Assembly (NCBI GenBank): GCA_964386385.1
Contig: CAYLRN010000001.1
Location: 172,706 to 236,705, forward strand
Length of the DNA stretch: 64,000 nucleotides
Direction of reading: 5' to 3'
From: an uncultured Lentisphaeraceae bacterium
Lineage (GTDB): Bacteria > Verrucomicrobiota > Kiritimatiellia > RFP12 > UBA1067
The notes below the pieces were generated by a model, which was not told the DNA's origin, did not search any database, and saw only the letters and a list, made by a program, of their open reading frames with translations. The translations under genes and the position numbers were made by a program. Shown in pieces: positions 3,797-57,074 of the stretch. Each line of letters opens with the position of its first letter. Position 1 is the first letter of the stretch.

Positions 3797-6700
3797 TCAG
3801 CGGAGGATCAGCAGCGTTCCGACGGCGGTGACGACGGAGATGCGGCCGTTCTCGAAGACGAGCGCGGAGTTCGGCGCAGCGCCAGAGACGGAACACGCAA
3901 GGTCCGCCGCGTCTGGCTCGTCGCCGGAGTACGCGAAGAGCGGGAATTTGGGCGGCAGCTTCACCGGACGGTCTGCCATCTGCACGACCGCGCCCTTCTC
4001 GGACTTGAACTTCGCAAGCGGGACGGGAGCGGACTGGCTGAAGCTCGCGCGCAGGACGCCGCCGCTCTGCAGCCACAGTTCGTCCAGCGCCTCCGGCGTC
4101 GCAGCCACCATGTCGAAGACGCCGCCGGCCGCGACGCCGAGCGTTCCGCGCACGGAACCGGCCACCGCCAGGCGCTGCCCGGCGGCCAGCGCGAAGGGCC
4201 GGTTCGTCGTCGTCGGCAGCACGAGGCTCGCGCCCGCCGCCACAGTGACGTTCGTCGCGGCGAGGCCGCACGCGCCCGAATCGCTCGCATGGGGGAACTG
4301 CGAGGGCGTCAGGATGCCGTACTTCGCAACCCAGGCGTCGGTCAGAGCCTTTACGGCCGCGTCGTCGATGAAGGAATCGTAGAGGCGCACCGCGGCGATC
4401 TCCCCCTTGTAGTTGAAGTCGCAGTTGCCGCTGCCGACAAGAACGCGCATTGCCTCGCGCGGCGTTCCGCCGGATCCGGCCGCCAAGAGGCGCATATGCG
4501 TGAAAACGCCGTCCACGACGATGCGCATGAGGCCGGTGTCAGTGTCGAAGGAGCAGACGGCGCAGTGAGGCTGGCCGTCGGCGAGGTCCCAGACGCGGCT
4601 GACAGTGGACTGGTCGCCGCGCGTAGACACGTTCTTTCCGCCGTAGCCGGCCATGACGCGGTTGCCCTCGCCCCAGAGACCCAGTCCCCAGTCCGCCCGG
4701 TTGCTGGTGGGAAGTTCCGCGCCGACCATAACTGACGACGCGAAGAAGTTGCGGTTCATGGTCACGGAATCAGGCATGTTTCCGTTCGTCGACGTGCGGA
4801 ATACGACCGCAGCCGTCCAGGCGACCTTGCCGGAGGCTGGCGAATCGCCGGCGGGGATGCCGAGGGAGGTGTTGTTTCCGTTGAAATAGACGGAGTTGTG
4901 TCCGTTGATCGCGCCCTTGCGCAGAACGGGTCCCTTCCAGGTGGAGGCGTAGGACGTGGCCGACAGGTCGCTTGTTCCCGTGATGCGCGTGACGTTCGCC
5001 TTGTTCGCCGTGCGCGTTCCATCCGTCGAAAGCCATTCCGTCACCTCCGCACCGTCGGCGACGTCGACGATCGAATCGGCGTCCCACGCGGCGGCGCCGT
5101 CGTCCGGAATTGCCGCGGGGACTTTCTCCCCCATCGGCGGAACGTCGCCCTGCGCCGAATCGTCATCCAGCTCTCCAACCGCGTAGACGCTCGCAGGCGC
5201 GCCGTACTTCCCGGCGAGTTCCACGCCGACGGCGGCCTTTTCGCTCCATGTCAGAGTCCTGCCGGGATAGAAGCGGATCTCGGCCAGCGCGCCCGTGAAC
5301 GCGAACTTGTACGGGGCGTCGGCGTCGGCAATGTTCTGGACGCCGAAGTAGATGTCCGCCGCGTTGCGCGGGCTGCGCGTCGTCTCGTCGAGGTCGACGG
5401 CCCTCTCGACGGTCTCGCCGTCGACGGAGAGCGTGAGCGTCCCGTCGCCGGCCATGGCGTAGATGGCAACGTGCGGCCGGCCGTCGGCGTAGCTGCGAGC
5501 CTTCGTGTAGACGCTGTAGTCCTTGTTGAGCTTGGCGACGCCGAAGCCGGCGCCGACATGTCCGTTCGCGCCGAAGACAAGCCCCCAGTCGTTCACGCAG
5601 CCCGGCTGTTCGCGTCCGAGAATGCCGGTCTCCATATACCACGAGTTGTCCCAGCCCAGGCCGGGCGTCGCAGTCTTGAAGACGACTGCCAGCGTCCAGT
5701 TGGTCTGCCCTGCGAGCGGATTTTCCTCCGCCACGACCTTGAGCGCGGAGTGGTCGAACACGACGCCCGGCCGGCCGTTGAACTCGTCGAGAGAGGCCTT
5801 GGGAACTGTCGTCGGATTCGACGAAAACGTCGGAACCACGGCAGTGCGCGAGGCAGTGGAGTCCGGCCATGCGACGACGTCGTCCCCGTCGGCAAGAGCC
5901 GCGACGGCGTCCTCCGCGCGCCAGGCTACGCATCCGGCGGCAGTCGCGGAAGAGGAGGAGGACATTGGCGCGCCCAGTATCTTGACCGTCCCCTCGTCGA
6001 CGGCGAGTTCGCCCGTGAACGCCGAGGCGTCCCCGAGGACGAGCGTGCCGGCCCCCTTCTTCGTGAGGACGCCGCATCCCTTGAGCGGGGCGCGCATGGC
6101 GAATCGGCGGTCCCGCGTGTCGACTGTCGCAGAGGCTCCGGAAGGGACGATCGTGTCGAGTTCGCTGAACGAGTCGGCCGTAGCCGCGAGCGTTCCGCCG
6201 CGCAGTTCGACGCGATACCAGGAGTCGGTCGTCGCGCCCGAGTTCCACCGCCCTTCAGTGGCCGAGAATCCGCGCGAACCGATTTCGAAGAGGCCGCCGG
6301 AGAGCGTGAACGTGCAGTAGCTGTTCGTGACGGGAATCTGGCGGTCGGCCCCGAACGTCGTCGCTCCGCCCAGCGCGACGCGCGGGACGCGCACGGCGCC
6401 GCCCGACTGGCGGTATGCGGCGGAGGGGGAGTTCACGACCGTTCCGTTGTCGCGCCTTGAGAACGCGAGGATCAGTCCGTCGTCGCCCGGCTGGCTGGAA
6501 GAGGTTTCGTCGACGGCAAGCGTTCCGCCCTTCACCGTGAAGTCGTGGGAGACGAGCTGGTGGCCGCCGCGGTCGCCCATCCAGAGCGTCCCCAGATTCG
6601 CCGTGCCGCCGTCCAGGACGAACTTCGGGTTGGCGTACCAGGTAGAAGAGCCGTTGCCCATGTAGAACGTCGTAGCGTCGAAGCGTCCGCCCGTCAGTTC

Positions 6701-7552
6701 GTAGAGCGAGTCGTACTTGCTGAAGCCGACCTGCGCCAGGACCGCCTTGACGTGTCCGCCGGACTGGCGGAACTCGCCGGAGTCGACGACGAAGACGCCG
6801 TTTGTGAAGACCGCGCCGTCGCCAAAGACCACCTTCGGCGCGCCCGGCTGCGTGAGAAGCAGATAGCTGCCTCCGCCACCCATGTTGACGACGACGCCGG
6901 GGAAGACGTCCTTCCAGTCCGCCTTGTCGGTGAACGTCAGTTCGAGCCGGGCGCTTCCGCTCCAGCGAAAGTCCTGCGCCCAGACGCCAGGTTTCGCCAG
7001 GCGCGCGACATTGTGTCCGCCGGACGCGAAGCGGTAGCCGAGCGTCCCCGCATAGGCCGGCGGCGCATTGTGGCAGGCCAGCACGGCGTTGGAGACTACG
7101 AGTTCGGAATTGCCGCCGATGGCGGCGTTGAAAAAGACCTTTGCCAGTCCGAAATCCCATGTCTGGTCCGCGGCCGTCGCCAGGCGGACGCTGAACGTGA
7201 GGTTGGAATCCGCCCCTGCGGCATGGCGGGCCGTCAGGCCGTCCGCGCCCAGGGCCAGCGTCGTCGTCGCGCCGGCCGCCGCGTTCGTGCCGACGACGAC
7301 GGCGCCGTTGGGGACGTTCGTGAGGACGAGGCCGCCTAACGCGAGGCTGGCGGAATTCGTCAGGGCAGCCATTCCCGGCCGCGCCGCGAAGTCGACCCAC
7401 GCGACGTCGTCCTCCCCCGGCAGGACACCGCCCGCCCAGTTCGCCGCGACGGCCATGTCCGCCGATTCCGCGCCGGAGAACCTTACGACCTCGCCCCGCG
7501 CCATCGCGAGAGCAAGCCCCATTGCGACTGCACAATACGCCGCCTTGACCAT
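3797..7552 (-). CDS. Giant secreted protein of about 1252 aa. It has multiple LamG/concanavalin-A-like lectin domains and an autotransporter-associated beta-strand (PATR) repeat.
   Basis: Start ATG at 7552 is preceded by AAGGAGG. Signal peptide is MVKAAYCAVAMGLALAMA. GTLVLGDASAFTGELAVDEGTVKILG matches the PATR repeat. LamG-like signatures include TLTLSVDGETVERAV and GEIAAVRLYDSFIDDAAV. The ORF-track start at 7945 is an upstream read-through. Confidence 0.75.
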   Translation of the reverse strand: MVKAAYCAVAMGLALAMARGEVVRFSGAESADMAVAANWAGGVLPGEDDVAWVDFAARPGMAALTNSASLALGGLVLTNVPNGAVVVGTNAAAGATTTLALGADGLTARHAAGADSNLTFSVRLATAADQTWDFGLAKVFFNAAIGGNSELVVSNAVLACHNAPPAYAGTLGYRFASGGHNVARLAKPGVWAQDFRWSGSARLELTFTDKADWKDVFPGVVVNMGGGGSYLLLTQPGAPKVVFGDGAVFTNGVFVVDSGEFRQSGGHVKAVLAQVGFSKYDSLYELTGGRFDATTFYMGNGSSTWYANPKFVLDGGTANLGTLWMGDRGGHQLVSHDFTVKGGTLAVDETSSSQPGDDGLILAFSRRDNGTVVNSPSAAYRQSGGAVRVPRVALGGATTFGADRQIPVTNSYCTFTLSGGLFEIGSRGFSATEGRWNSGATTDSWYRVELRGGTLAATADSFSELDTIVPSGASATVDTRDRRFAMRAPLKGCGVLTKKGAGTLVLGDASAFTGELAVDEGTVKILGAPMSSSSSATAAGCVAWRAEDAVAALADGDDVVAWPDSTASRTAVVPTFSSNPTTVPKASLDEFNGRPGVVFDHSALKVVAEENPLAGQTNWTLAVVFKTATPGLGWDNSWYMETGILGREQPGCVNDWGLVFGANGHVGAGFGVAKLNKDYSVYTKARSYADGRPHVAIYAMAGDGTLTLSVDGETVERAVDLDETTRSPRNAADIYFGVQNIADADAPYKFAFTGALAEIRFYPGRTLTWSEKAAVGVELAGKYGAPASVYAVGELDDDSAQGDVPPMGEKVPAAIPDDGAAAWDADSIVDVADGAEVTEWLSTDGTRTANKANVTRITGTSDLSATSYASTWKGPVLRKGAINGHNSVYFNGNNTSLGIPAGDSPASGKVAWTAAVVFRTSTNGNMPDSVTMNRNFFASSVMVGAELPTSNRADWGLGLWGEGNRVMAGYGGKNVSTRGDQSTVSRVWDLADGQPHCAVCSFDTDTGLMRIVVDGVFTHMRLLAAGSGGTPREAMRVLVGSGNCDFNYKGEIAAVRLYDSFIDDAAVKALTDAWVAKYGILTPSQFPHASDSGACGLAATNVTVAAGASLVLPTTTNRPFALAAGQRLAVAGSVRGTLGVAAGGVFDMVAATPEALDELWLQSGGVLRASFSQSAPVPLAKFKSEKGAVVQMADRPVKLPPKFPLFAYSGDEPDAADLACSVSGAAPNSALVFENGRISVVTAVGTLLILR

Positions 7553-7625
7553 TTCAAGCCTCCTTGCCAGAGAATGCCACCCGCCGCGCTTGGCGGAAAC
7601 TGCAGAGTCCGAATGCATATGAAGC

Positions 7626-7653
7626 ATTATATCCGTTTTTTTTTTCTCGTCAA
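7626..7653 (-). promoter_or_regulatory. Sigma70-like promoter TTGACG-16 nt-TATAAT for the giant LamG gene. The spacer consists mostly of a homopolymeric A10 (T10 on the plus strand) tract.
   Basis: Minus strand reads cgcaaTTGACGagaaaaaaaaaacggaTATAATgc. The promoter lies between the activase stop (7678) and the LamG gene start (7552). Confidence 0.5.
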
Positions 7654-7677
7654 TTGCGTTCGCCATAAATGGGCGAT

Positions 7678-8526
7678 TTATGGGAGTCGGACGGCGACTT
7701 TCTTCGGCGGCATGACGTCGGGGAGACCGAGGGCCAGGTACTTCGCCCGCGCGTAGTCGTTGTACTCCAGCTCCACGCGAGCGTCCTTTGCGATGCCCAT
7801 CCCGTCGAGGTCGCGATGGCGCGCGGCAAGGTCTGCGCCGTCCGTCAGATTGGGAACGACGAGCAGGCGGACTTCCATTTTCGCCTTCGCCGCGACGAGC
7901 CGGGCGAGATTGCGCAGAATGAGCTCGTTTGATACGCCTGTGCATCGGCGATGGAGATCAGCGCCGTGCGCCTTGTAGTCGGGAAGCCACATGTCCGTCA
8001 CTGGAAGCATCGCCTCGATTGCGGCTGGCGGCGCGTGAAGCGACGTGTCCAGGCAGGTCCGCAATCCCGCCGCGCGGAAGCGCGCGAAGAGCTCCGCCGC
8101 CCATTCCCAGAAGAAGAGCGGTTCGCCGCCGGAGAGAGTGACGCCGCCGCCCGTCCGCTCGTAGAACGGCCTGTCTTCAAGCGCCAGCTCGACGATGCGC
8201 TCCATTGTCATCGGCTTCCCGTAGAACTTCAGCGCACCGGTCGGACACGTCGCCTCGTCGTTCGTGCAGACCTTGTGTCGAACGCACTTGTGCCGGAAGC
8301 GCGCCAACTGCGGCTTCGGGTCGATCGACTCCGGGTTGTGGCACCACAGGCATTTCAGCGGACACCCCTTGACGAAGAACGTCGTCCTCATCCCCGGGCC
8401 GTCCCATATTGCCATCCGCTTCACGTCGAGAAGCAGCGGCGTACGCAGCGGACGGCCGGCAGCGAACGCCGGCGCCAGAGCACATGACGCAACGCCTGCC
8501 AGGAATCCCTTGCGAGTCGTCTTCAT
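7678..8526 (-). CDS. Glycyl-radical-enzyme activating protein (radical SAM, PflA-like), 283 aa. It has an N-terminal Tat/Sec-like hydrophobic extension.
   Basis: CPLKCLWCHNPESI (CX3CX2C), WDGPGMRTTFFVKGC, and a ferredoxin-like Cys cluster CVRHKVCTNDEATC. Start ATG at 8526 overlaps the upstream GRE stop (ATGA). The N-terminus reads MKTTRKGFLAGVASCALAPAFAAG. Confidence 0.8.
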   Translation of the reverse strand: MKTTRKGFLAGVASCALAPAFAAGRPLRTPLLLDVKRMAIWDGPGMRTTFFVKGCPLKCLWCHNPESIDPKPQLARFRHKCVRHKVCTNDEATCPTGALKFYGKPMTMERIVELALEDRPFYERTGGGVTLSGGEPLFFWEWAAELFARFRAAGLRTCLDTSLHAPPAAIEAMLPVTDMWLPDYKAHGADLHRRCTGVSNELILRNLARLVAAKAKMEVRLLVVPNLTDGADLAARHRDLDGMGIAKDARVELEYNDYARAKYLALGLPDVMPPKKVAVRLP

Positions 8527-11393
8527 TGCGCGATTCCCTCCGCGCGCCGGATGTAGGCCTCCTGCTCCTTTCGCGGCATGTCGTTCCAGCGGACGTTCCA
8601 GCCGCACACGCGCACCTGCAGGTTCTCGTATTTTTCGGGCCGCCGCTGGGCGTCGCGCAGCGTCTCCACGTCCACGACGTTGAAATGGATCGCGCATCCG
8701 CCGTTCGCGAAATACGTCTGCACCAGCGCCTTCATCGCGTCAAGCCCCTTATCGCCTCCCACGGCGTACGGGAGAAGCATGACGTCGAGCGGGAAGTCGC
8801 CCGGCAGGTCGCGGGCGTCGAGGTGGGCGACGGATAGCAGAAGCGCCGTAACGCCCTCCGTGTCGGCGCCCATCGTGGGGGAGACGTTCTTGCTCATCTC
8901 CTCGCCGGCGCGGCGTCCGTCCGGCGTCGCGCCCGTGGCGCGGCCAAGGTCGATGAACTGCTTCGCGCAGTGTCCGCTCGCCTCGAACGCGCCGTTGCGC
9001 GAATTCGGGACGCCGTTCAGGCATTTAGCGTAGGCCTTGACGATTTCGTCGGCGAGATGGTTCGCCTCCGCGTCGTTGTTTCCCCACTTGCGCTTCGAGC
9101 GCTGCATCCTGAGGCGGAGGTCTTCACGCCCTTCCCAGTTCTTCGCCATCAGCGCGCCGAGTTCGGCAAGCGACATCTCACGGCGCTCGTAGACGATTTC
9201 CTCCACGGCGAGCAGCGCGTCGACCGCGGTGCCGAGGCCGGTCTGGAGGACGGAGGAGAAGTTGCCGCGCCGAGTGCCGTCGACGAATGCGTCCTTCCCG
9301 GTCATGACGCTGTATTCCGTGGCAAGCGAGAAGAGAAGGGACGGGTTGACTTCGGCAAGAGTCCTCTCCCACTCGAACGCGAGATTGCGGCTCTCGACGG
9401 TCGTCTCCGCAAGCCGCGCCAGGTAGGCCCGCCTGAACGCCGCGAAATCGGCGGCGGCGAAAGTCCCGTCCTTCGCGCGATCGAGCAGTTCCTCGACGAC
9501 CTTCAGCAGATTGACGTGGGAGATGCCGGTGCCGTTGTAGCCGTCCCTGAGGCCGAACTCGTAGCAGCCGGCGACGACCATCGCGCGGCAGTCCTCGTCA
9601 GTGCAGTCGCGTATCTTGCCCTTCAGCACGCGCGCCATCGGCTCTTCGCCGCAGAAGACGAGCGAACGGTGTCGGCGCGCCATGTCGAGGGCCTTACGCC
9701 AGACCCAGTCGGGGGTGGAGGCCGCCATCTTGAGCTGGACTTTCGGCGTCGGCAGGGCGAGTTCGTCGTGCACTTCAAGGAGAATGCGCGAGACCTCGTT
9801 GTACGCGCTCGTGCCGTCGGCGTTCGTGCCGCCGAAATAGACGGGCTGCCCCCAGTAGTTGTCGATCGACCCCCACTGCCACCAGAAGTGGCGGAGCTGT
9901 TCGCGGAACTCCGCCTCGGTCGTCCGCCCCGCCGCGATGTCTGCGCGGTAGTAGGGCGTAAGGAGGCGGTCGAGGTTGCCGAGGGAGCGGACCTGGAAGC
10001 TGTCGAAGTTCTCGCTCATCACCCAGTCGAGATAGATGAAGAGCAGGACGTCATAGGCCGTCCGCGGCGCGCCCGCGCGCAGGCGGCGCAGGGAATCGCG
10101 CTCCTTCTCGAGGCGGGAGACGCGCCGCGCATGAACCGCGCCGGGCGGGTCCGCCGCCTCGCTCCGCAGGGCAGCCAGACGACGCTCCGACTGGACGACG
10201 AGGCGGTCCAGATGGCGAAGGACGGCGTCTGCGGCCATGAGACGGCTTTCGTAGTAGGCGTTTCCGTCCTTCCAGTTCGCCAGCAGACGTTCCCGGAGGC
10301 CGGGGAAGCCGAGCGGCAGAATAGCGTCCCAGTCGGGGACGGAATGGTCGTAGTCCTTCCACATGTTCCAGCGTCCGGCCTTGCGCCCGGCATGGATCTT
10401 CGCCGGCACGTCCGGACACGTCCGGGCGTCCACCTCCCCGCTGCGCTGTCCCATGATGGAATTGAGAGGATGCCCGAACCTGTGCTTCGTCCAAAGCGCG
10501 TAGGCGGGAAACCAGTCAAGGGGCGAGACGTCTATCGCCGCGCGGTCGCAGCAGAACGCGAAGAGCTTAGCCTTTACGACGCTCCACGGCATTCTGCCCT
10601 TGCTCTCCTCCGCAAGCCTTGAGAGCGCCCCGCGCATCTCCTCGCGCTCAAGGCCGGTGGCGGGGTCTGCGACAGGGGTCCGCCACTTGAAGCGAAGGTA
10701 GTCCGCCTCGTTCGCGAACGGCGCGATCGTCCGTTCCTCGTACGGGGTCAGGACGACGTTGCGCAGACGTATCGCCACCCGTCCCTGCGGATAGGGCTGC
10801 GTCTGGAAGCCGATGCGTCCCGCGCGCGGAACTGTCACGAAGCAGCGGCTCACCTCCACTCCGTCCCACGAACACGCGACATCTCCCTCGACGCTGCGGA
10901 CGGCGAGGCGATGCCAGGCGCCGGGCGTCCGTCGCGCCGCTACGGCGCGGGGGATGCGATGGTAGCCGACTCCCGACATCGGACCCGACTGCGGCGTGGC
11001 GCCGACCATCAGCCCCGGCCATCCCCACAGGTCGCCGATGTCCGTCGTCTTCAACTGGAATTCAAGACCCGACGCCTGGTCGCCGTCGCCGACAAGAACG
11101 GCCAGCCCTCCGTCGCCGAACGAATCGTCGGCGTACTGTATTTCGGCCGTGAGCTTGAAATCGCGCCAGCGTTCCCTCGTCGTCAGGACGAGCGGCCTGG
11201 CGCCGTTCATGGTCAGGACGCCGTCCGCCAGGCTGAACGTCTCCGCGACGTCGGCGGCGGACTTCGCCATCGGGCAGTCGAAGTCCGCCAGCGTCCGCCC
11301 GGCGAACAGATCCACCGGCGGAAGCGCGGTCGGCGCGGCAAGTCCCGTCCATGCGGCAAGGACCCCGGCGGCGATGGCCATTTCAAGTTTCAT
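8523..11393 (-). CDS. Fusion protein of 956 aa: signal peptide + DUF1080 (3-keto-disaccharide-hydrolase-like/LamG-like) module + glycyl-radical-enzyme (PFL-family) fold.
   Basis: RBS AAGGAGG precedes the ATG at 11393. N-terminus is MKLEMAIAAGVLAAWTGLAAP. DUF1080 signature ...DFKLTAEIQYADD...GRIGFQTQPYPQGRVAIRLRNVVL. C-terminus QVRVCGWNVRWNDMPRKEQEAYIRRAEGIAQ parallels the PFL glycine-radical motif RVSGYAVRFNSLTKEQQ. AGCYEFG is the candidate thiyl-Cys loop. Confidence 0.75.
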   Translation of the reverse strand: MKLEMAIAAGVLAAWTGLAAPTALPPVDLFAGRTLADFDCPMAKSAADVAETFSLADGVLTMNGARPLVLTTRERWRDFKLTAEIQYADDSFGDGGLAVLVGDGDQASGLEFQLKTTDIGDLWGWPGLMVGATPQSGPMSGVGYHRIPRAVAARRTPGAWHRLAVRSVEGDVACSWDGVEVSRCFVTVPRAGRIGFQTQPYPQGRVAIRLRNVVLTPYEERTIAPFANEADYLRFKWRTPVADPATGLEREEMRGALSRLAEESKGRMPWSVVKAKLFAFCCDRAAIDVSPLDWFPAYALWTKHRFGHPLNSIMGQRSGEVDARTCPDVPAKIHAGRKAGRWNMWKDYDHSVPDWDAILPLGFPGLRERLLANWKDGNAYYESRLMAADAVLRHLDRLVVQSERRLAALRSEAADPPGAVHARRVSRLEKERDSLRRLRAGAPRTAYDVLLFIYLDWVMSENFDSFQVRSLGNLDRLLTPYYRADIAAGRTTEAEFREQLRHFWWQWGSIDNYWGQPVYFGGTNADGTSAYNEVSRILLEVHDELALPTPKVQLKMAASTPDWVWRKALDMARRHRSLVFCGEEPMARVLKGKIRDCTDEDCRAMVVAGCYEFGLRDGYNGTGISHVNLLKVVEELLDRAKDGTFAAADFAAFRRAYLARLAETTVESRNLAFEWERTLAEVNPSLLFSLATEYSVMTGKDAFVDGTRRGNFSSVLQTGLGTAVDALLAVEEIVYERREMSLAELGALMAKNWEGREDLRLRMQRSKRKWGNNDAEANHLADEIVKAYAKCLNGVPNSRNGAFEASGHCAKQFIDLGRATGATPDGRRAGEEMSKNVSPTMGADTEGVTALLLSVAHLDARDLPGDFPLDVMLLPYAVGGDKGLDAMKALVQTYFANGGCAIHFNVVDVETLRDAQRRPEKYENLQVRVCGWNVRWNDMPRKEQEAYIRRAEGIAQ

Positions 11394-11435
11394 GATACCT
11401 CCTTGAGTTCAATTGCCCCTGTGAATGGCGTTTCG

Positions 11436-14400
11436 TCAGAAAAGGCGGTTGGAGAGGAAGCAGGAGGCGACGACGTGGCCCTTGACGATGAATGTCGAGA
11501 CGGGGATGCGCATTCCGGTGAACTGCTTGAACCCCTGCAGCCACTGCCCCTTCAGCTCCAGTTCGAGGTCGCCCGTCTCGGCGCGGAACGAGACGACGCA
11601 CAGTTCGCGCGGCGAATAGCGGATTCCGGTGCCCAGGGCCTTCGAGACGGCCTCCTTCGCGCACCAGAAGCGGATGATGGCGCTTGGGGTGTCGACGGCG
11701 TTCATCGCCAGATCCTGCTCCTCCGGAAGGAAGACGCCGCGCGCGAATTCGTCGGAAAGATACCGGTCGAAGGCCTCCACGTCCACGCCGACATGGGCGT
11801 TGACCGCGACGGCGGCCATGATGAAGCGGGCGGTGTGGGCGATGGAGAGGTCGAAGTCGACGTCGCTGCGCATGTGGTGCAGCCACGGGCCCGTGACACG
11901 GGGCTTTCCGCTGGGGTCGGAATAGACCTGCACGTCGGCGTCGCTCCAGCGCGCCTGGTAGTATCTGTCCAGAAAGCGGCGGACCGCCTCCTTGGCGGCG
12001 ACGCGGCCGAAGAGCCATTCCGTCCGGCGCGCCACGCTGCCCTTCTCCTCCATCTCCGCGAACTCGTGGCGTTCGGTGCGTCCGAGGACGATGTGCGAGA
12101 GGGTCTTGAGCCAGAGTTCCTCGTTGCGTTCGAACATGGGGTAGTCGACGTCGGTCAGGACGGCGGTGGCCATCGCAAGGCCGGTCGCGCCCATGCGCTC
12201 CTCCGGGAGGGTGTGCGTCAGGTAGGTGCGCGCCGGTTCGAGGAGCATCTTTCGGTATTCGTCCGGCACGCGCTCGGTGTATTCCTCGTAGCCGCGCAGT
12301 TCCATGACAAGGTTTCCGTTGCCGTCGGAGACGAATATGTCGGAGATGAGGGACGTGGGGGTGACGCCGGTGTTGCGCAGATAGCAGTGCAGGCGGCGTC
12401 CGACGGGATGGGCGAGCGAGTGGAGGGAGAGGCCGCGGATGCGGAACGCATATGAAATCGCCCCGTGGAAGCGCTCGTGGCTGCGCCAGAGCTGGAAGCC
12501 GTCCGTGATCGCGGCCATGAGCTGCGGGTTGAGCACCCAGACCGGGACGGTCGTGTGGGACACCGCCCTGTCCGATTCTGGCACCTCAACTTCGTAGTCG
12601 AGCCCCGCCTCGCTCCATCGGTCCGCGCGGCGGATGCACTGCAGAAGCGAACCGGAGAAGAGCATGTCGGGATAGATGTCGCTCGTCTCCCAGTGGACGT
12701 CCCTCGGCGTAGTGCCGTGCTCCGGCGGCGTGAACGCCTCCGGCGGAAGGGGACCTTCGGAAAGGAGGAACGTCCCCTCCATCGCAGGCCACGTCCAGGC
12801 GGAACCGGGCGTGTCCTCGCGCACCTGGACGCGCACGGCGACGCGCGCGGAGGCGGAAGCCGCGACGCGCTCGGCCCGGACGAAGAGGCGGAGGCGGCCG
12901 TTCCTGAATGCGGCCATGCGCCGGCGCTGCAGGTCGTTCACCGCGACGACGTGGAGGCCCGGCGCCAGCTGCTGGGCGAGCTCTGCCATGATCTCCGCCG
13001 CGCCGACGAGCGTCAGCGCCGTAAACCCGCGAAGCGGCTCAAGCCCGGAGTCGGCGTGGTCGGGATGCGAGAGCTGCGACGTCCCGAGGGCGAAGTCGGC
13101 GAGGATCGGCTCCGCCTTGAGGTCGAACGTCTTCACCATCTCGATCGATATGCCCTGCTGGTGGGAGACGACGTCCATGTCTGAAATTAGCGGACACACG
13201 GCGCCGAAGCCGAACTGCTGTTCGCGGCGCCGCGCCTGGGCGGCGATGACGGCCGCGCGCACCGCGGCCCGGCTGCGGCGGTCCGACGCGCCGCCCATGG
13301 AGGGCGCAAGCGCGGAGACGGCCTGCGGCGGCGGGACGTCCACCGTCAGGGCGAGGCAGGGGAACTCGCGCGAAAGCGGCATCTCCGCCTCCATCCTGAC
13401 GTTGAGCGAGAGGGGCGACGAGAAGTCCAGAAGCCGGCATCTGCGCTGGCGGAAGAGAAGCGAGGGGTCGACGGCGGCGCCAAGGGCGGCGAGCTGGCCT
13501 ACGACGTGCATCAGCTGGACGAGGCCCACGCGGTGGATGGAGTCCGCCGCCATCACGACGCGCTCCTCTCCGCGCAGGACCTCGTCGGCAAGGCCGCAGC
13601 ACGTCCCGCGCGGGCCGACCTCCAGGAAGACGCGATAGCCGTCGGCGTACATTCTGCGAATCGTGTCCGCGAACATGACGGGCCGCACCCATTCCTCCGC
13701 CGCCTCGTCGCGCGCCTTGCGGACGCGGGGGTGGAGCGGTTCGGCGCGGCCGCACGAATAGACGGGGAACTGCGGCTTTTCGTCTATCCAGTTGGACGCG
13801 AACTTGCGCAGGAGCGGAAGCACCCCACGGCAGCCCGGCGTGTTGAACGGCCTGTCCACGGAAAGGCGGCGGACGCGCGCCCCGGCGGCGGAAAGGCGCT
13901 TCACGACGTCGGCGGCGCATTCCGGCGCGGCGGCGATTGTCATGTGGCGCGGGGAGAGGCGATACGCCACGCCGACCTTGTCAGGCGGGAACTCGCCCAA
14001 CGCGCGTTCCGTTTCGCCGGGGCTTGCAGAGACGACGGAGGCGAGGACGCACTTCGGAAGCCCCGAATGCCCCACCGCCGTGTTCACCACCTTGTACGTC
14101 TCCTGCAGGAATTTGAGCCGGTGCTTGCGCTCGAACTTCCCGAACATCCCGCTTGCGGCGAGGGCGCTCAAATCGCCTCCGGAAAAGCCCGTCGCCCCTT
14201 CCGGCACGATTCCGAGCGCGCGGAAGAGGCGCGTCAGCGCCATGTTGGCGGAATACGTGGAGACGACGGCCTCGGCGTAGCCGCCGGCCGCGAAGACGTC
14301 CGCGTCCCCGCGGTAGTACGGCGCCGGCGGGAATACGAACGACGACGGCTGGAAGGGGCCTGCGCCCTTCAGCGCGGCCTCGAGCTCGTCGAAGGGAAGA

Positions 14401-14819
14401 CGGCACTCGCGGAAGCGCACGGTGACGTCGCGAAGCATGTCGGGATAGAACGACATTGCGCCGGGATAGATGAACGCCAGCTTCCCGTCCGCGCCCTCGC
14501 CGAGGACGTGCCTGGAGAAGAAGTACGTCCCCGACTTGTCGCGCAGACGCTCCGTCTTCGCGTCGGCGATCCGCGCCGCGGCGGAGACGAGGCGGCCGCG
14601 CAGTTCCGGGACGTCGGAGACGACGAGCGCCAGAACCGCGGCCTTCTCGCCGTCAGCGAACCGGCGGGCGCACGTGTACGCGACGTCGCGCAGCTCCACG
14701 CCCGTGATCTGGTCGATGAACGACACAAGGCCGTTCACCTCGGACACAAGCCCATCCCTGTCCGCCGCGCCGAGCAGGACAAGTTCGCTTCCAAACCATT
14801 CGCTCAGGTCCGCGCTCAT
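11436..14819 (-). CDS. Multidomain PKS/FAS-like protein of 1127 aa: KS-AT-type linker + acyltransferase + dehydratase (hot-dog) + Sfp-type 4'-phosphopantetheinyl transferase. No carrier-protein domain was seen.
   Basis: AT: LAFIYPGAMSFYPDM, GFSGGDLSALAASGMF, FLEVGPRGT. DH: LSHPDHADSGLEPL...GAAEIMAE. PPTase: SGKPRVTG...FDLSIAHT, GVDVE, FWCAKEAVSKALGTG. The start overlaps the KS-like stop (ATGA). Confidence 0.7.
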   Translation of the reverse strand: MSADLSEWFGSELVLLGAADRDGLVSEVNGLVSFIDQITGVELRDVAYTCARRFADGEKAAVLALVVSDVPELRGRLVSAAARIADAKTERLRDKSGTYFFSRHVLGEGADGKLAFIYPGAMSFYPDMLRDVTVRFRECRLPFDELEAALKGAGPFQPSSFVFPPAPYYRGDADVFAAGGYAEAVVSTYSANMALTRLFRALGIVPEGATGFSGGDLSALAASGMFGKFERKHRLKFLQETYKVVNTAVGHSGLPKCVLASVVSASPGETERALGEFPPDKVGVAYRLSPRHMTIAAAPECAADVVKRLSAAGARVRRLSVDRPFNTPGCRGVLPLLRKFASNWIDEKPQFPVYSCGRAEPLHPRVRKARDEAAEEWVRPVMFADTIRRMYADGYRVFLEVGPRGTCCGLADEVLRGEERVVMAADSIHRVGLVQLMHVVGQLAALGAAVDPSLLFRQRRCRLLDFSSPLSLNVRMEAEMPLSREFPCLALTVDVPPPQAVSALAPSMGGASDRRSRAAVRAAVIAAQARRREQQFGFGAVCPLISDMDVVSHQQGISIEMVKTFDLKAEPILADFALGTSQLSHPDHADSGLEPLRGFTALTLVGAAEIMAELAQQLAPGLHVVAVNDLQRRRMAAFRNGRLRLFVRAERVAASASARVAVRVQVREDTPGSAWTWPAMEGTFLLSEGPLPPEAFTPPEHGTTPRDVHWETSDIYPDMLFSGSLLQCIRRADRWSEAGLDYEVEVPESDRAVSHTTVPVWVLNPQLMAAITDGFQLWRSHERFHGAISYAFRIRGLSLHSLAHPVGRRLHCYLRNTGVTPTSLISDIFVSDGNGNLVMELRGYEEYTERVPDEYRKMLLEPARTYLTHTLPEERMGATGLAMATAVLTDVDYPMFERNEELWLKTLSHIVLGRTERHEFAEMEEKGSVARRTEWLFGRVAAKEAVRRFLDRYYQARWSDADVQVYSDPSGKPRVTGPWLHHMRSDVDFDLSIAHTARFIMAAVAVNAHVGVDVEAFDRYLSDEFARGVFLPEEQDLAMNAVDTPSAIIRFWCAKEAVSKALGTGIRYSPRELCVVSFRAETGDLELELKGQWLQGFKQFTGMRIPVSTFIVKGHVVASCFLSNRLF

Positions 14820-16270
14820 CGCCGTTCCTCGCCTTCTGGTTCCTCCTCAAGCACCACCGCCGCCTTTCGTCCGCCCAGGTCGGAGACAAGCACGACCGCG
14901 CGGCGCGGCGACGACGGGTCGCCCGTGATCCACGGCCGCGGCTCGTTCAGCAGGTACACCGACGAGTTCGCGCTGGAGAGCTGCGCAAGCGGCGTCGCCA
15001 CCGGCATCTGCGGCGGAAGGATACGCCGGCGCAGGGCGATCGCCGCCTTGAGCAGTCCCGCCGCCGCCTCGGCGCGGAAGCAGTGCCCCACGTTCCCTTT
15101 CACGGAGCCGATGCCGACGAGCGGCCCGCCGGGGCGGTGCTCGCCCCAGACGGACTGCACCGCCTCCACTTCCGCGGCGTCCATTTCGGGGATACCGCAC
15201 CCTTCCGCCTCGACGAGCCCGATCGAGTGGAGCGGCGCCGCCGCGCGCTCCGCCGCATCCGCCAGCACGTCGGCGGCGGAGAGCTCCCCGCAGGAGACAG
15301 ACCTGACGAGCGCGTATATGCGGTCGTTCGCGGCAAGCGCGTCCGACTCGCGCTTCAGGACGAAGAACGCGCCGCCCTCGCCGGGAATCGTGCCGTGGGC
15401 GGACCGGTCGAAGGGAGTCAGTTCGGAGTCCTTGGAGAAAAGAACTTCGCCGGAGACGCCCTGAAGGAAGGCTCTGCTGAGCGGCGGCGTCAGGGCCCCG
15501 GCCAGCGCGACGTCCGCCCGGCCGCTGCGAAGGTCGTCCATCGCGCCGCGCAGCGACGCGACGCCGCTGAGAAAGCCGCCGTCTATCGTCGTCGCCCCGC
15601 CGGAAAAGGAGCATTCGTGCGCTATCCACGAGGCTATCCTGTGCCCTGAACCGGAAAGGAAGCTGGCGGCGTTCGCCTCCGGGAGGGAGGAAAGCAGCTT
15701 CTGCCTTATGTTCTCGAACGATTCCTGCGGGGCGTTGCGGAAGAACCTGCCGATGATCTCCATCGTCTGGTCGATGAAGAACGTGTGGTCGAGCCAGTTG
15801 ACCGTGGAGGCGTTGAAAGGCGGCGCGTAGCCGAAGCGCACCGTGCCGCGGTGCAGTTCGCGCCCATGCGGACGCATCCCCGCATCGACAAGCGCGTCGA
15901 ACGCCAGCTGGACGGCGAAGTAGAGATCCTGGTTTTCGCCCTTGTTTATCTGGCGCGGGAAGTTCTGGTCGCCGGGGACGCAGGCGTAGAGCCGCCCGAG
16001 CGTCCCGCCGTGCGTCGGATACGGGCGGTTGAAGAGGTTCTTCGCGCCCGGCAGCAGCGCGGTGTCGAACCCAAGCGGCGCGATGCCGCTCTTCTGGTGC
16101 ATTATCTGCCGCCAGAAGACGCCCGGGTCCGCCGCCTGCGCGAAACGGCATGACACGCCCACGATTGCTATTGGAATGCTTTGCACGCCACCAGTATAGC
16201 AAAAACGACCGCCGTGTTGTAGACACCGGCAATGGACAACAGGCGGCACGTTGTTGTACAATAGCCGCAT
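14816..16270 (-). CDS. Beta-ketoacyl-synthase-like protein with the active-site Cys replaced by Phe (KS0/chain-length-factor-like). The likely true start is the GTG at 16186.
   Basis: IAIVGVSCRFAQAADPGVFW resembles a PKS KS N-terminus. TIDGGFLSGV aligns to the TVDTACSSSL consensus, so C becomes F. GHCFRAEAAAGL keeps the His motif. Minus strand has TGcTATACT 6 nt upstream of GTG 16186. Confidence 0.65.
   Translation of the reverse strand: MRLLYNNVPPVVHCRCLQHGGRFCYTGGVQSIPIAIVGVSCRFAQAADPGVFWRQIMHQKSGIAPLGFDTALLPGAKNLFNRPYPTHGGTLGRLYACVPGDQNFPRQINKGENQDLYFAVQLAFDALVDAGMRPHGRELHRGTVRFGYAPPFNASTVNWLDHTFFIDQTMEIIGRFFRNAPQESFENIRQKLLSSLPEANAASFLSGSGHRIASWIAHECSFSGGATTIDGGFLSGVASLRGAMDDLRSGRADVALAGALTPPLSRAFLQGVSGEVLFSKDSELTPFDRSAHGTIPGEGGAFFVLKRESDALAANDRIYALVRSVSCGELSAADVLADAAERAAAPLHSIGLVEAEGCGIPEMDAAEVEAVQSVWGEHRPGGPLVGIGSVKGNVGHCFRAEAAAGLLKAAIALRRRILPPQMPVATPLAQLSSANSSVYLLNEPRPWITGDPSSPRRAVVLVSDLGGRKAAVVLEEEPEGEERR
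16186..16205 (-). promoter_or_regulatory. Extended -10 (TGcTATACT) immediately upstream of GTG 16186. This is a leaderless-type start for the KS-like gene.
   Basis: Minus strand reads ttTGcTATACTggtggcGTGcaaagcattccaatagca, which translates VQSIPIAIVG. Confidence 0.35.
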
Positions 16271-39958: not shown

Positions 39959-40039
39959 TGGCGCTGGCCGCTTTTATTTCGTCCGCCGGCGAAATAGGCA
40001 GCGGATTTCCGCGCCCATGTTGACGCGGGGAAAACGGCG

Positions 40040-40058
40040 TGGTAGAATGGTCTGCATG
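40040..40058 (+). promoter_or_regulatory. Extended -10 TGgTAGAAT located 7 nt upstream of the ATG at 40056 (leaderless-type start).
   Basis: Sequence reads cgTGgTAGAATggtctgcATGaatcgg. No RBS is present. Confidence 0.4.
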
Positions 40059-42080
40059 AATCGGCGACTGAAAATACCGTACGGCATAAAGGACTTCAAG
40101 CGGATACGCGAAGAAGGCTACTACTACGTCGACAAGACGGCGTACGTCCGGCGGATGGAGGAGCGCGACAGCTTCGTCTTCTTCGCGCGCCCCAGGCGCA
40201 TGGGCAAGTCCCTCTTCGTCGAGACGCTCCGCCGCTACTACGACGTCAACGAAAAGGGCAACTTCAGGAAGCTGTTCGGGGGGCTTGACATCGGCGAGAA
40301 CCCCACCGAGAACGCGAACAGGTACCAGGTGCTCGCGCTCGACTTTTCGCTGGTCGCCGCCAGTTCCGAGCGGACCCTCGAGCAGGCGTTCGACGCATAC
40401 ATGGACGTCTGCCTCGACCGATTCTTCGTCCGCTATCCGAACTGCTATCCGCCGGAGGACAGGCCGGCGTTCGCCGCGCTCACCCCGGAGGCGAAGTTCG
40501 CCTACCTCTCGCAGACCGCGAATGAGCGCGGAGCGCAGATCTATCTTGTCATCGACGAATACGACAACTTCACGAACACGATGCTGCGCAGCGAGGCGAA
40601 CAGGGACTACCGCGCCGTCACGCACGGCGCCGGGTTCTACCGCGGCTGGTTCAAGAAGTTCAAGGAGGCCTGCTCGCGCATATTCATGACAGGCGTCTCG
40701 CCCGTGACGATGGACGACCTCACGAGCGGCTTCAACATCGCCGCCAACCTCACCCAGCTCCCCGCGTTCAACGCGATGGCGGGCTTCTCCGAGGCCGAGG
40801 TCGTGAAGATGTACTCCGACTTCAAGGGCGTCGGCGAGTTCACGGACGGCGACCCCGCCGAAATCGTGAAGTCCATCAAGCCGTGGTACGACGGCTACTG
40901 CTTCTCGACGGCGAAGATAGGGAAGGAATGCGTGTTCAACAGCGACATGGCCCTCTACTACCTGAAGTCGCTCGTGGACGACGGACGGCCGCCGGAGAAC
41001 ATGGTGGACGCCAACGTCAGGACCGACTACGAGAAGCTGAAGATCATCGCCGAGATTCAAAGGCAGCACAGGTACTGCGCAGGGACAGGCTCCTGTGCGG
41101 TGCAGGACTCTGATGTCCAAGACGGCGCAATGGCTTCCGCGCCCGCTTCCGCAGCCGCAGGGCAGGCCACTGCGCCGGCAGCCGCACAGGCGCTTGCATC
41201 AGGGTTCCGCACCGCATCTGGCGCTGCGGTGGCGGATGCTTTCCATGTGCCTCCGCTGGCGCCTGCGGCGGCAGATGAGCCGGCCATTGCACCGTCTTTG
41301 CCATCAGAGTTCCGTACCACATCAGATGCCGCAGAAAACGCCGCGCTCGACAGCGTGGACGTGCTGCCGGTCACGGAGCGGCTGGCGGCGACCGGCGAAA
41401 TCTCCTTCGACCTCGTGGAGAGCTTCCCCGCGGACAGGATATCCGACCTCGCGAACTTCCACTCGCTCTTCCACTACTACGGCATCGTGTCGATGCAGGG
41501 AAGGCGCAGGGGGAGCACCGTGTTCCGCATCCCCAACGTCTGCGTCCGCCGCCAGCTCTTCGACTACCTCCGCGACACCTACCACAGGACGCGGGCTCCG
41601 GACTGGATCGAGTGGTCGCATCTCGCATCGGCTTTCGCCTACGACGGCGACTGGAAGCCGTTCCTCAGGCGCCTTGCGCGGGACTACGCGGAGACCACGC
41701 CCGTTCGCGGCGGCCTCCAGGGCGAGATCCGCGTACAGGGCTACATGCAGGCGGAGTTCGGACACCTCAAGTTCTATCTCCTCGCGCCGGAGATGGAGCT
41801 TTCCCGCGGCTTCTGCGACTTCTGCCTCTTCCCGGAGAGGGTCCACTACGGCGACGCCTCGCACAGCTATCTCATCGAACTGAAGTACGCGAAGGCTGAG
41901 GCCTCGGACGAGGACATGGCCGGTCTGGTCGCGGAGGCGAAGGCGCAGCTTGCGAAGTACCGCGCCGACCGCTCCGTCCCGTCCCTCGCGCGCGGCACGA
42001 CCCTGCACCAGATCGTCTACGTCTTCCGCGGGACGGTTCTGCATACTCTGGAGCAATTCAGTTGCGAACAAATGGCTTAA
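40056..42080 (+). CDS. AAA-ATPase-like domain protein (PF09820-type N-terminus) with a C-terminal PD-(D/E)XK nuclease-like domain (PDDEXK_9-type). It contains an Ala/Pro-rich low-complexity insertion.
   Basis: KIPYGIKDFKRIREEGYYYVDKTAYV, FFARPRRMGKSL, and C-terminal SYLIELKYAKAE. A paralogue lies at 57183-58943 with about 60% identity outside the insertion. Confidence 0.8.
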   Translation: MNRRLKIPYGIKDFKRIREEGYYYVDKTAYVRRMEERDSFVFFARPRRMGKSLFVETLRRYYDVNEKGNFRKLFGGLDIGENPTENANRYQVLALDFSLVAASSERTLEQAFDAYMDVCLDRFFVRYPNCYPPEDRPAFAALTPEAKFAYLSQTANERGAQIYLVIDEYDNFTNTMLRSEANRDYRAVTHGAGFYRGWFKKFKEACSRIFMTGVSPVTMDDLTSGFNIAANLTQLPAFNAMAGFSEAEVVKMYSDFKGVGEFTDGDPAEIVKSIKPWYDGYCFSTAKIGKECVFNSDMALYYLKSLVDDGRPPENMVDANVRTDYEKLKIIAEIQRQHRYCAGTGSCAVQDSDVQDGAMASAPASAAAGQATAPAAAQALASGFRTASGAAVADAFHVPPLAPAAADEPAIAPSLPSEFRTTSDAAENAALDSVDVLPVTERLAATGEISFDLVESFPADRISDLANFHSLFHYYGIVSMQGRRRGSTVFRIPNVCVRRQLFDYLRDTYHRTRAPDWIEWSHLASAFAYDGDWKPFLRRLARDYAETTPVRGGLQGEIRVQGYMQAEFGHLKFYLLAPEMELSRGFCDFCLFPERVHYGDASHSYLIELKYAKAEASDEDMAGLVAEAKAQLAKYRADRSVPSLARGTTLHQIVYVFRGTVLHTLEQFSCEQMA

Positions 42081-56232: not shown

Positions 56233-56276
56233 TCTACCAAAAAGAGGGCGAGTAGTGAACTGGTGAATTGCCGGCC

Positions 56277-57074
56277 TCAGCGGCCGGACAGGGCGGACGA
56301 CGCGGGCAGAATCCGCGTCGTGTAGCGCGTCTTTTCCCAAGGCGTCCCCTTAGGCGTGATACATTTGATGGCGGCCTTCCACATGCGGCCGTCAAGCTGG
56401 AGGACGCCGACGGCGGTGTCCTCCTTCACGTTCTCGACGGACGACAGGTCGGCGGGAGCGACGAGCGTGAGCGACGGCACGGACTTCCCGTTCGTGGAGT
56501 TCCTGCCGGCGTAGCAGCCGAAGTAGAAGCGCCCGTTCGCGTAGTCCGCGGTCTGAATCCCCAGATTCGTCCAGCCGCTGCGCAGCACGTGGCGGTCGAC
56601 GAAGCGGAAATCGGGCGTGTACTCGTAGACGTAGTTCACGTCGTGCGTAGGCGGAAGGCCGCCGACCACGAAGAAATGCCCGTCCTTGTACGTCATGCCG
56701 CCCGCGCCGTGGCGCAGTTCCGGGACCTTCCAGCGCCTGACGAAGGAGAGGTCGTCCGCATTGTAGGCGTAGACCCAGCTGTCCGCCTTGTCCTCCGTGT
56801 TGAACTGCCCATGGTTGACGGCGACGTACACCTTGCCGTCGACGACGCAGAGGTCGCCGTGGTGGGTCTTGAGCCCTTTGGCGACGGCGAGCAGCTTTCC
56901 GTTCAGGTCGGTCCGCGCAAGTTCGACCGTATGCGACCACCAGACGTTCGTGCCGTCGGTGCAGACGCCCTGGAGATGGGGCGGCCATTCGCCTTCGCTC
57001 AGGATTTCGTTCTGCGGCGCCGCGCCGAACGCCAGTCCGCGGATGAGGGCGATTGCCAGCAGCGATTTCTTCAT
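56277..57074 (-). CDS. Secreted hypothetical protein of 265 aa.
   Basis: Signal peptide [20 protein letters not shown]. It is rich in beta-strands and aromatic residues. No family was recognised. Confidence 0.55.

Follow-up and report, generated by a model that had tools for sequence, protein, structure and literature searches.

Can a glycyl radical enzyme work outside the cytoplasm? Glycyl radical enzymes (GREs) and the radical S-adenosylmethionine (SAM) activases that serve them are oxygen-sensitive and, in the textbook picture, either cytoplasmic or enclosed in microcompartments, a location that is shared by every member described but does not define the superfamily. The question is raised by a 64,000-nucleotide stretch of DNA (hereafter the window; positions 172,706 to 236,705 of contig CAYLRN010000001.1, assembly GCA_964386385.1) from an uncultured Lentisphaeraceae bacterium placed in the Kiritimatiellia, in which a GRE gene and the gene of its activase overlap and the products of both carry a predicted export signal. 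On the evidence of sequence, predicted structure and related loci, we consider that these two genes encode an extracytoplasmic GRE system for anaerobic carbohydrate processing, a reading to which we give a probability of about 0.6. The GRE superfamily itself is known; what would be new is the location of the system and the logic of its maturation.

A predicted export signal on a glycyl radical enzyme

A sequence-only reading of this stretch had described a single open reading frame (ORF) of 956 residues with a strong ribosome-binding site, which joins a Sec-like N-terminus, a module with DUF1080 signatures and a PFL-like remainder ending in a glycyl radical domain. Each of these elements was recovered here (Table 1). 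The ORF is single and lies on the minus strand, its start codon is an ATG at 11393-11391, and a database protein (P0001) is 100% identical to its product. When the precursor was searched with hidden Markov models, all three Pfam domains exceeded their own gathering scores; the match to PF06439 (3keto-disac_hyd, formerly DUF1080) has an E-value of 5.3e-9 and 36.8 bits against a cut-off of 26.8, and spans profile positions 3-176 of 187.

The N-terminus contains a stretch of about 16 uncharged hydrophobic residues and lacks a twin arginine. By a hydrophobicity heuristic it has the layout of a Sec-type signal, with a short n-region, the h-region MAIAAGVLAAWTGLAA and a possible cleavage site at G17-L-A19 or A20. 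In the orthologous clusters P0002 (82% identity), P0003 (62%) and P0004 (59%) the N-termini are equally hydrophobic but differ in sequence, which is the behaviour expected of a signal peptide. The architecture of signal, DUF1080 module and GRE is found unbroken in these three clusters, which also have precomputed PF06439 matches, and in loci L003 and L046. Most relatives of the GRE (about 740-780 residues) are devoid of the DUF1080 part, and one (P0008) retains a remnant of its C-terminal strand right behind the signal. The segment that follows the module (residues 226-343) stands in place of the first 150 or so positions of the PFL-like profile and is specific to the family: a search with residues 226-400 (window 10194-10718) found only 170 representatives among 1.84 billion database sequences.

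The export signal is, as judged from sequence, a property of the whole GRE family and extends beyond the DUF1080 fusion. Signal classes were assigned by a heuristic combining hydrophobicity and motif, together with family comparison. Among the 120 best homologues (54-100% identity over the GRE part, mostly 740-780 residues), 58 have a Sec-like signal, 39 a signal of the twin-arginine translocation (Tat) type and 23 none, several of the latter being visibly truncated at their start. Examples of the Tat-like motif are TRRGFL, SRRSFL and TRKRFL, and TIGR01409 scores the Tat-type GRE P0005 at 18.0 bits, over its cut-off of 16.7. The GREs found in loci are distributed similarly (Sec 45, Tat 23, none 12), so that about 80% of the family members bear a signal of one or the other type. 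The heuristic for the Sec type flagged one of 61 outgroup activases and, among the outgroup GREs, only that of L139. Relatives at 38-45% identity, which belong to other organisms, are signal-less and begin exactly at the mature N-terminus of the exported proteins.

A scan at one genome per species yielded 116 GRE relatives. Of the 79 loci kept from it, 45 are labelled Kiritimatiellae or Kiritimatiellia, 10 Verrucomicrobia and 3 Lentisphaer-. The loci of the family all come from rumen or gut metagenome-assembled genomes (MAGs), that is from anoxic habitats, and several genomes contain at least five paralogues. Signal-less sister GREs of about 735 residues (L105-L129, e.g. L114, L118, L110, L121) occur in gut and environmental organisms; they share the family-specific N-terminal region, and each adjoins a signal-less activase. 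In the two of these loci whose neighbours were scanned (L105 and L121), an AraC regulator lies beside the GRE-activase pair; neighbours of the outgroup GREs also include a MatE transporter and a sugar-isomerase-like TIM barrel, none of which reveals a substrate. Locus L004 contains two GREs in tandem (7827-9965 and 10001-12238, of 712 and 745 residues), the first of which is about 32% identical to the window GRE.

The catalytic core

The window GRE is a member of the GRE superfamily according to its predicted fold, its glycyl radical domain, its Cys loop and its activase. An AlphaFold2 model built with 32 family members is confident for residues 230-956, with a predicted local distance difference test score (pLDDT) mostly above 90, and in this part the structure prediction bears out the proposed GRE fold. 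It failed for the DUF1080 part: residues 1-225 are modelled with low confidence (pLDDT 26-68 per 10-residue block), because only four sequences cover the module. The best Foldseek matches of the model are B12-independent glycerol dehydratase (GDH), PflD, propanediol dehydratase (PD), PFL2, HypD and YbiW, at target-normalised template modelling (TM) scores of 0.77-0.83 and about 20-23% identity. The top match is 1r8w, followed by 5i2g and 6vxc, and the top 50 matches listed are all GREs (target-normalised TM 0.70-0.83). By sequence, the best matches in the PDB are Archaeoglobus fulgidus PFL2, PflD, HypD and glycerol dehydratase.

The motif strings GRIGFQTQPYPQGRVAIRLRNVVL, AGCYEFG and QVRVCGWNVRWNDMPRKEQEAYIRRA are all present in the GRE. 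AGCYEFG had been proposed to sit at the thiyl-Cys position, and the alignments agree: G609-C610-Y611-E612 is invariant across 32 family members and is aligned with the GCVE loop of GDH, HypD and PflD, which provides the thiyl Cys and the general-base Glu; C610 is also aligned with the cysteine of PFL2. R928, G931 and W932 are equally invariant among the 32 members, and pairwise alignments place RVCGW on the RVAG[YW] of solved GREs. The sequence-only reading had called this Gly loop non-canonical and atypical. It is in fact canonical, since the published GRE fingerprint is RVxG[FWY]x6-8[FL]x4Qx2[IV]x2R, and A. fulgidus PFL2 has RVAGW at this place. The window segment, RVCGW-NVRWND-M-PRKE-Q-EA-Y-IR-R, departs from the fingerprint only by an M for [FL], where relatives have L, and a Y for [IV].

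None of the named GRE groups in NCBIfam fits (PFL2-3 subfamily, HypD, CutC, HpsG/HpfG, PFL). The nearest model is the PFL2/glycerol-dehydratase subfamily TIGR01774, with 236 bits against a cut-off of 678, and the equivalogs all score at most 210 bits against cut-offs of about 1000. By these scores and its Cys loop, the window GRE is in the GCxE eliminase-like group and outside every named equivalog.

An activase with a twin-arginine-type signal

The activase gene lies directly downstream of the GRE gene. The stop codon of the GRE and the ATG of the activase share bases (ATGA), and translation of the two is therefore probably coupled. A tblastn search with the activase of L005 matches window 8433-7699 at 71% identity, and the product reaches 214.5 bits, against a cut-off of 174, with TIGR02494, the model for glycyl-radical enzyme activating proteins, in addition to its matches to Radical_SAM and Fer4_12. 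The CX3CX2C motif of the radical-SAM cluster is invariant in our activase alignments A2 and A3. A plus-strand ORF at 7951-8487, which overlies this gene, was rejected as spurious.

Thirty extra residues, MKTTRKGFLAGVASCALAPAFAAGRPLRT, precede the conserved core (…PLLLDVKRM…) of the activase. The N-terminus reads MKT-T-R-K-G-F-L-AGVASCALAPAFA-AG and has the features of a Tat signal, namely an n-region of the twin-arginine type (T-R-K-x-F-L), an h-region of mild hydrophobicity and the site AFA. This extension is present in all of the 120 closest activase clusters (68-80% identity), and 119 of them show [ST]R[RK]xF[LIV] followed by a hydrophobic region. The first Arg of the motif is invariant in the alignment and the Phe is conserved in at least 90%; at this one aligned position the pair reads RK in 79 clusters, RR in 40 and RG in one. 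We also sampled 52 ingroup activases blind to the extension, either from GRE-anchored loci or through conserved core motifs. The extension is found in 37 of these, the other 15 beginning directly at MKTPLMLD, and in none of 61 activases from other organisms (at most 43% identity). Some natural Tat substrates have a working signal with RK or KR in place of the twin arginine. The window also encodes a Metallophos protein with a textbook Tat signal, which indicates that Tat is in use in this genome. The Tat assignment of the activase signal is well supported by the motif, though not proven.

Three further observations concern the activases. PFL2-type GRE activases usually hold two full ferredoxin motifs, for two auxiliary clusters; in alignments A2 and A3 the auxiliary-cluster region is reduced to a single CxxCxxCx6CP motif, and the window activase (residues 81-100) has a His at the second Cys position (C81-x5-C87-x6-C94). 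The N-terminus of the activase in locus L098 (2396-3133, with about 200 nucleotides upstream), MAGISRRGFVRLAALSTTSAGPFAVFAKHDADTISWNPY..., is a copy of the beginning of a GRE subfamily, namely of its Tat signal and the first residues of its mature protein. A recombination event seems to have transferred this signal to the activase gene from a GRE gene; the window activase signal (MKTTRKGFLAG) likewise resembles GRE signals such as MKTTRKTFLGG. Finally, L038 combines a Tat-signal activase and a signal-less one in a single locus (6544-7281, plus strand, and 8400-9140, minus strand), which indicates that single genomes may keep both a periplasmic and a cytoplasmic activase.

Complementary signals in GRE-activase pairs

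The signals of the two partners are not combined freely. Pairs were defined as a GRE and an activase adjacent to each other, less than 900 nucleotides apart, the window pair being included after scoring by hand on account of its DUF1080 insert and the duplicate L037 = L096 being counted once. Sec-type GREs stand beside Tat-signal activases in 19 distinct pairs and beside signal-less ones in none. Tat-type GREs show the complementary arrangement, with a signal-less activase in six of eight pairs, or nine of 11 when three later pairs from L166 and L168 are added; the other two (L028, L093) are Tat with Tat. A signal-less GRE is paired with a Tat-signal activase in two cases (L007, L023) and with a signal-less one in a single case. 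A Fisher test on the first Sec/Tat by Tat/none table, which ignores kinship among the pairs, gives a p-value of about 1e-4. In L166, an esterase gene stands between two Tat-signal GREs (10001-12247 and 13211-15493), behind which come genes for a signal-less activase, a PfkB kinase and a sugar transporter. The closest Tat-type relatives of the window GRE, P0005 and P0006, have no adjacent activase on their short contigs.

This complementary pairing is the outcome expected of functional signals. As a Sec substrate is unfolded when it passes the membrane, it could be activated only outside, and its Fe-S activase would have to follow in the folded state; a Tat substrate is already folded during transport and can be activated before it leaves. 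Both types of pair occur inside the 60%-identity cluster of the window GRE itself, and the signal state of the activase switches at least nine times on a rough neighbour-joining tree, which together count against pure inheritance of the pairing.

Carbohydrate-related fusions and loci

The DUF1080 module is one of several modules found between a Sec-like signal and a GRE of this family. We identified fusions of a CE7 acetyl-xylan esterase (AXE1; P0243, P0266), a SASA sialate O-acetylesterase (P0057), a glycoside hydrolase (GH) of family GH43 (P0253) and a GH2 beta-mannosidase-like module of about 830 residues (P0272). P0249 also carries an 830-residue N-terminal module, which has no match by sequence in the PDB; the architectures of P0272 and P0249 recur on several contigs. 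The loci of the family hold genes for GH2, GH20, GH28, GH29, GH43, a BNR sialidase, BD-FAE esterases and DUF4838, together with GFO_IDH_MocA proteins, AP_endonuc_2 or sugar-isomerase-like TIM barrels, a sugar kinase, a transporter and AraC regulators. The large neighbour proteins of the GRE-activase pairs show no mutual similarity.

A proposed maturation route and its alternatives

We propose that the window GRE leaves the cytoplasm unfolded through Sec and folds outside, while the activase would acquire its [4Fe-4S] cluster or clusters in the cytoplasm and leave folded through Tat. Outside, the activase would abstract a hydrogen atom from G931, and the radical would move to C610, whose thiyl form would take a hydrogen from a carbinol carbon of a sugar. 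With E612 acting as a base, this may lead to 1,2-elimination, or cleavage of the C-O bond of the neighbouring OH or OR group, yielding a keto- or keto-deoxy sugar. The fused DUF1080 module may then perform an adjacent lyase or hydratase step, making or consuming a keto-glycoside. Sister lineages would follow the reverse route, in which a Tat-signal GRE is activated by a signal-less cytoplasmic activase and only then exported in folded form. As for the SAM and the electron, we would guess that the activase leaves the cytoplasm already loaded and serves for about one activation per GRE molecule, a use with which the 1:1 coupling of the genes by ATGA would agree. Other conceivable solutions are a donor in the periplasm, or activation in the cytoplasm and subsequent co-export, the last because signal-less GREs adjoin Tat-signal activases in L007 and L023.

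Several points weigh against this proposal. We know of no SAM or low-potential reductant available in the periplasm, and the GRE-activase pairs of the annotated related loci have no conserved third gene beside them that might supply SAM and reductant or act as a transporter. The signal calls on GREs and activases are heuristic classes assigned to sequences that are for the most part metagenomic, and some 15-20% of the GRE family members are signal-less. The window activase has the RK variant of the twin arginine; the Pfam model TAT_signal (PF10518) matches seven of 60 activases, with a best E-value of 0.0019, and leaves the window activase unmatched, while TIGR01409 gives an RR activase (P0123) 13.5 bits, under the cut-off. 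At 60% identity the Sec-GRE/Tat-activase pairs amount to only four clusters and the Tat-GRE/signal-less-activase pairs to only three, and the pairing has its exceptions, both Tat with Tat and signal-less GRE with Tat activase. Finally, the DUF1080 module is without a confident structural model.

Part of these difficulties would vanish if export were real but activation always took place in the cytoplasm, the pair or the activated GRE crossing by Tat with the activase signal as a hitchhiker's ticket and the Sec-type N-terminus going unused for Sec. The problem of periplasmic SAM and reductant then disappears. The signal-less GREs beside Tat-signal activases can be read in this way, the pairs of Tat-type GRE and signal-less activase show cytoplasmic activation followed by Tat export within the family, and in many activases the mature core still begins with Met, so that a cytoplasmic isoform might be made. 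In the window activase, however, this internal Met is replaced by Leu. Moreover, the Sec-type GREs show ordinary n-, h- and c-region features, modules typical of Sec-exported enzymes often sit between signal and GRE, and hitchhiking would render the GRE signal dispensable, yet it has been kept in four separate 60%-identity clusters. We therefore regard this alternative as unlikely.

It is improbable that the exported protein is GRE-like without being a radical enzyme, its barrel serving as a carbohydrate-binding or hydrolytic module and the activase attending to other, cytoplasmic GREs. One might be led to this view by the NCBIfam equivalog scores, all far under their cut-offs, by the identity of only about 20-23% to characterised GREs, and by an extracytoplasmic environment that is hostile to a glycyl radical. 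But G931, R928, C610 and E612 are invariant over 32 diverse members, and the whole glycyl radical domain is kept; the overlap of the two genes points to coupled translation, the export signals of activase and GRE vary together, and all the source habitats are strictly anoxic.

The N-terminal segments might also be something other than export signals, such as anchors on the cytoplasmic side of the membrane, peptides that target the enzymes to microcompartments, or wrongly called starts. Heuristic classes and weak Tat model support leave some room for this, GRE microcompartments are common and their encapsulation peptides are N-terminal as well, and long spurious 5' extensions arise in high-GC genomes. 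Mis-called starts are difficult to reconcile with 120 independently called activase genes that all include the extension and its invariant Arg, or with signal-less relatives that begin exactly at the mature N-terminus. The hydrophobic regions measure only about 12-16 residues and are followed by AxA-like sites, and as positive charges precede them, even a signal-anchor would put the enzyme outside; between signal and GRE lie esterase and glycoside hydrolase modules, or members of the DUF1080 family, which is characterised as periplasmic. Targeting to a bacterial microcompartment was rejected, since the genes called in 11 annotated related loci, down to the small ones, include no shell genes (PF00936 or PF03319); none were found either among the larger window ORFs scanned (from about 125 residues up). 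Taken together, these data make the absence of export very improbable. As for an assembly or frameshift artefact joining two genes, to which the lack of the DUF1080 part in most relatives might point, it can be set aside as having next to no probability, since the architecture is continuous in P0002-P0004, L003 and L046, from independent assemblies and different sources, and P0008 keeps its strand remnant behind the signal.

Comparison with known systems

PflD and YbiW, the 1,5-anhydromannitol- and 1,5-anhydroglucitol-6-phosphate C-O lyases known as "GRE isomerases", are radical enzymes that cleave a sugar C-O bond, and they are among the best matches of the window GRE in both sequence and structure (8yjo, E-value 2e-49; 8id0, target-normalised TM 0.81 and a root-mean-square deviation of 3.4 Å; identity about 21-23%). 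Their Cys loop (GCxE) and Gly loop (RVxG[FWY]) are of the kind found in it. However, they work in the cytoplasm, their substrates are phosphorylated monosaccharide derivatives, and they have neither signal peptide nor fused module; their first 150-200 residues or so are replaced by the family-specific region in the window GRE, and the Cys loop has Val at its middle position in PflD and YbiW and Tyr here. The B12-independent glycerol and 1,2-propanediol dehydratases and HypD likewise share the fold, the aligned catalytic Cys and Glu and a dedicated activase of the PFL-AE type. These 1,2-eliminases (GDH, PD, HypD) differ in being cytoplasmic or housed in microcompartments, and their activases are signal-less, whereas the window activase has a signal and a single reduced CxxCxxCx6C motif; the window GRE also falls far under their equivalog cut-offs. 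A. fulgidus PFL2 (2f3o) is the best PDB match by sequence (E-value 1.3e-50) and its RVAGW is a Gly loop of the RVCGW type, but it is archaeal, and its solved chain of 776 residues, devoid of signal and fused module, aligns only with the GRE part.

GRE microcompartments offer a parallel in that GRE and activase share a compartment cut off from cytoplasmic reductases, which poses the same question of electron supply. In the window system the compartment would be the periplasm or the cell exterior, reached through Sec and Tat by means of signal peptides instead of amphipathic encapsulation helices.

With respect to the fused module, the characterised DUF1080 members (AL2/BT2) are periplasmic 3-keto-glucoside 1,2-lyases and hydratases. 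They belong to the AL/BT cluster of gut Bacteroidota, which comprises a GFO oxidoreductase, a sugar-isomerase-like lyase and a DUF1080 lyase/hydratase; the oxidoreductase has a predicted Tat signal and is thought to hold NAD(H) tightly. The resemblance lies in a periplasmic DUF1080 enzyme acting on keto-sugars and in the GFO_IDH_MocA and AP_endonuc_2 genes that recur beside the GREs. In the AL/BT pathway it is an NAD-dependent dehydrogenase that makes the keto group, whereas in the window a candidate radical eliminase is fused to DUF1080; such an eliminase might produce a keto-deoxy sugar with no need of a redox cofactor. Of the two options raised by the sequence-only reading, an exported GRE and a lectin-targeted one, the evidence favours the first, while the lectin role gives way to that of an enzyme module.

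Fe-S proteins that are loaded in the cytoplasm and exported by Tat, such as hydrogenase small subunits and DmsAB, are familiar, and signal-less partners can ride along with them. The window activase would resemble these enzymes in acquiring its cluster in the cytoplasm and in having a twin-arginine signal. In the literature searched, we found no description of a radical-SAM activase as a Tat substrate, and full-text searches, which also took in Kiritimatiellae, secretion and polysaccharides, gave none of an exported or periplasmic GRE or activase, which agrees with the earlier judgement that the fusion is unusual. In a GRE review of June 2026, the section on compartments covers only microcompartments, and periplasm, secretion and signal peptides are not mentioned.

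Other features of the window

The neighbours of the GRE pair in the window (Table 1) are unlike those in the glycan-degradation loci, and the local context thus offers no clue to the substrate. A gene pair that resembles a compact polyketide synthase (PKS) or polyunsaturated fatty acid synthase lies upstream in the same orientation, 43 nucleotides from the GRE start. Downstream is a giant protein with autotransporter passenger-associated (PATR) repeats and a signal-like N-terminus (MVKAAYCAVAMGLALAMA), whose true start is likely near 7549. Giants with PATR repeats are neighbours of GREs in L166, L168 and L169 as well, with no detectable similarity to one another. Elsewhere in the window, GreA/GreB domains occupy only the last 160 or so residues of an 800-residue protein, behind an N-terminal extension of about 630 residues, and its gene adjoins that of a DksA/TraR zinc-finger protein. 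Two paralogous proteins combine AAA-ATPase_like with PD-(D/E)XK (PDDEXK_9), the second having an N-terminal extension of about 310 residues.

Table 1. Features of the GRE-activase locus and of other parts of the window
Feature	Position	Strand	Basis
GRE precursor gene (signal, DUF1080, glycyl radical enzyme)	8523..11393	-	ORF, translation, Pfam
Shine-Dalgarno sequence AAGGAGG, 4 nucleotides upstream of GRE ATG	11398..11404	-	read from sequence
Predicted Sec-type signal peptide of GRE, about residues 1-21, MKLEMAIAAGVLAAWTGLAAP	11331..11393	-	hydrophobicity heuristic and orthologues
DUF1080 / 3-keto-disaccharide hydrolase family module, residues 27-200	10794..11315	-	PF06439
Family-specific N-terminal region of mature GRE, residues 226-343, YLRFKWR...DVSPLDWFPAYA...	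10365..10718	-	profile gap and search
PFL-like barrel, residues 344-806	8976..10364	-	PF02901, E 4e-56
Cys loop G609-C610-Y611-E612 (GCxE)	9558..9569	-	invariant in family; aligns with GCVE
Glycyl radical domain, residues 834-937	8583..8894	-	PF01228, E 4e-22; fingerprint RVxG[FWY]
Predicted radical glycine G931	8601-8603	-	PF01228 and alignment
GRE-activating enzyme (radical SAM), 282 residues	7678..8526	-	tblastn, TIGR02494, Radical_SAM and Fer4_12
Twin-arginine-type signal peptide of activase, MKTTRKGFLAGVASCALAPAFA	8461..8526	-	motif and family conservation
Radical-SAM cluster motif C55-x3-C59-x2-C62 (CPLKCLWC)	8341..8364	-	translation
Auxiliary-cluster region of activase	8226-8286		
Ketosynthase (484 residues) and acyltransferase/PKS-dehydratase/4'-phosphopantetheinyl transferase protein (1127 residues)	11436-16270	-	
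PATR-repeat giant	3797-7945	-	
GreA/GreB-domain protein, 800 residues	34230-36632	-	
DksA/TraR zinc-finger protein, 225 residues	33506-34183	-	
AAA-ATPase_like and PDDEXK_9 protein	40017-42080	+	
AAA-ATPase_like and PDDEXK_9 protein	56268-58943	+	

Implications

If the proposed system is real, radical enzymology would extend to the periplasm or the cell exterior. In the route with a Sec-type GRE and a Tat-type activase, a radical-SAM enzyme would work in the periplasm and find SAM and a low-potential electron there, which raises the question of whether these are delivered outside or whether the activase is a pre-loaded, single-use reagent. Only tentatively do we go further and suggest that gut and rumen Kiritimatiellae practise extracytoplasmic glycyl radical chemistry as a new class of carbohydrate-active enzymes, with two interchangeable maturation routes (Sec-type GRE with Tat-type activase in the periplasm, and Tat-type GRE pre-activated in the cytoplasm), and that this class is the anaerobic counterpart of oxidative enzymes such as lytic polysaccharide monooxygenases. 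The fusions to CE7, SASA, GH2, GH43 and DUF1080 modules and the glycan-degradation loci suggest a radical attack on carbohydrates, possibly on linkages or modifications that are beyond the reach of hydrolases. For strict anaerobes, this would be a radical and cofactor-light way of attacking carbohydrates. As the family is small, multiplied within genomes and, as far as its sources bear names, confined to gut MAGs of Kiritimatiellae or of others labelled as members of the Planctomycetes-Verrucomicrobia-Chlamydiae (PVC) group, it may represent a signature adaptation of these fibre and mucin degraders.

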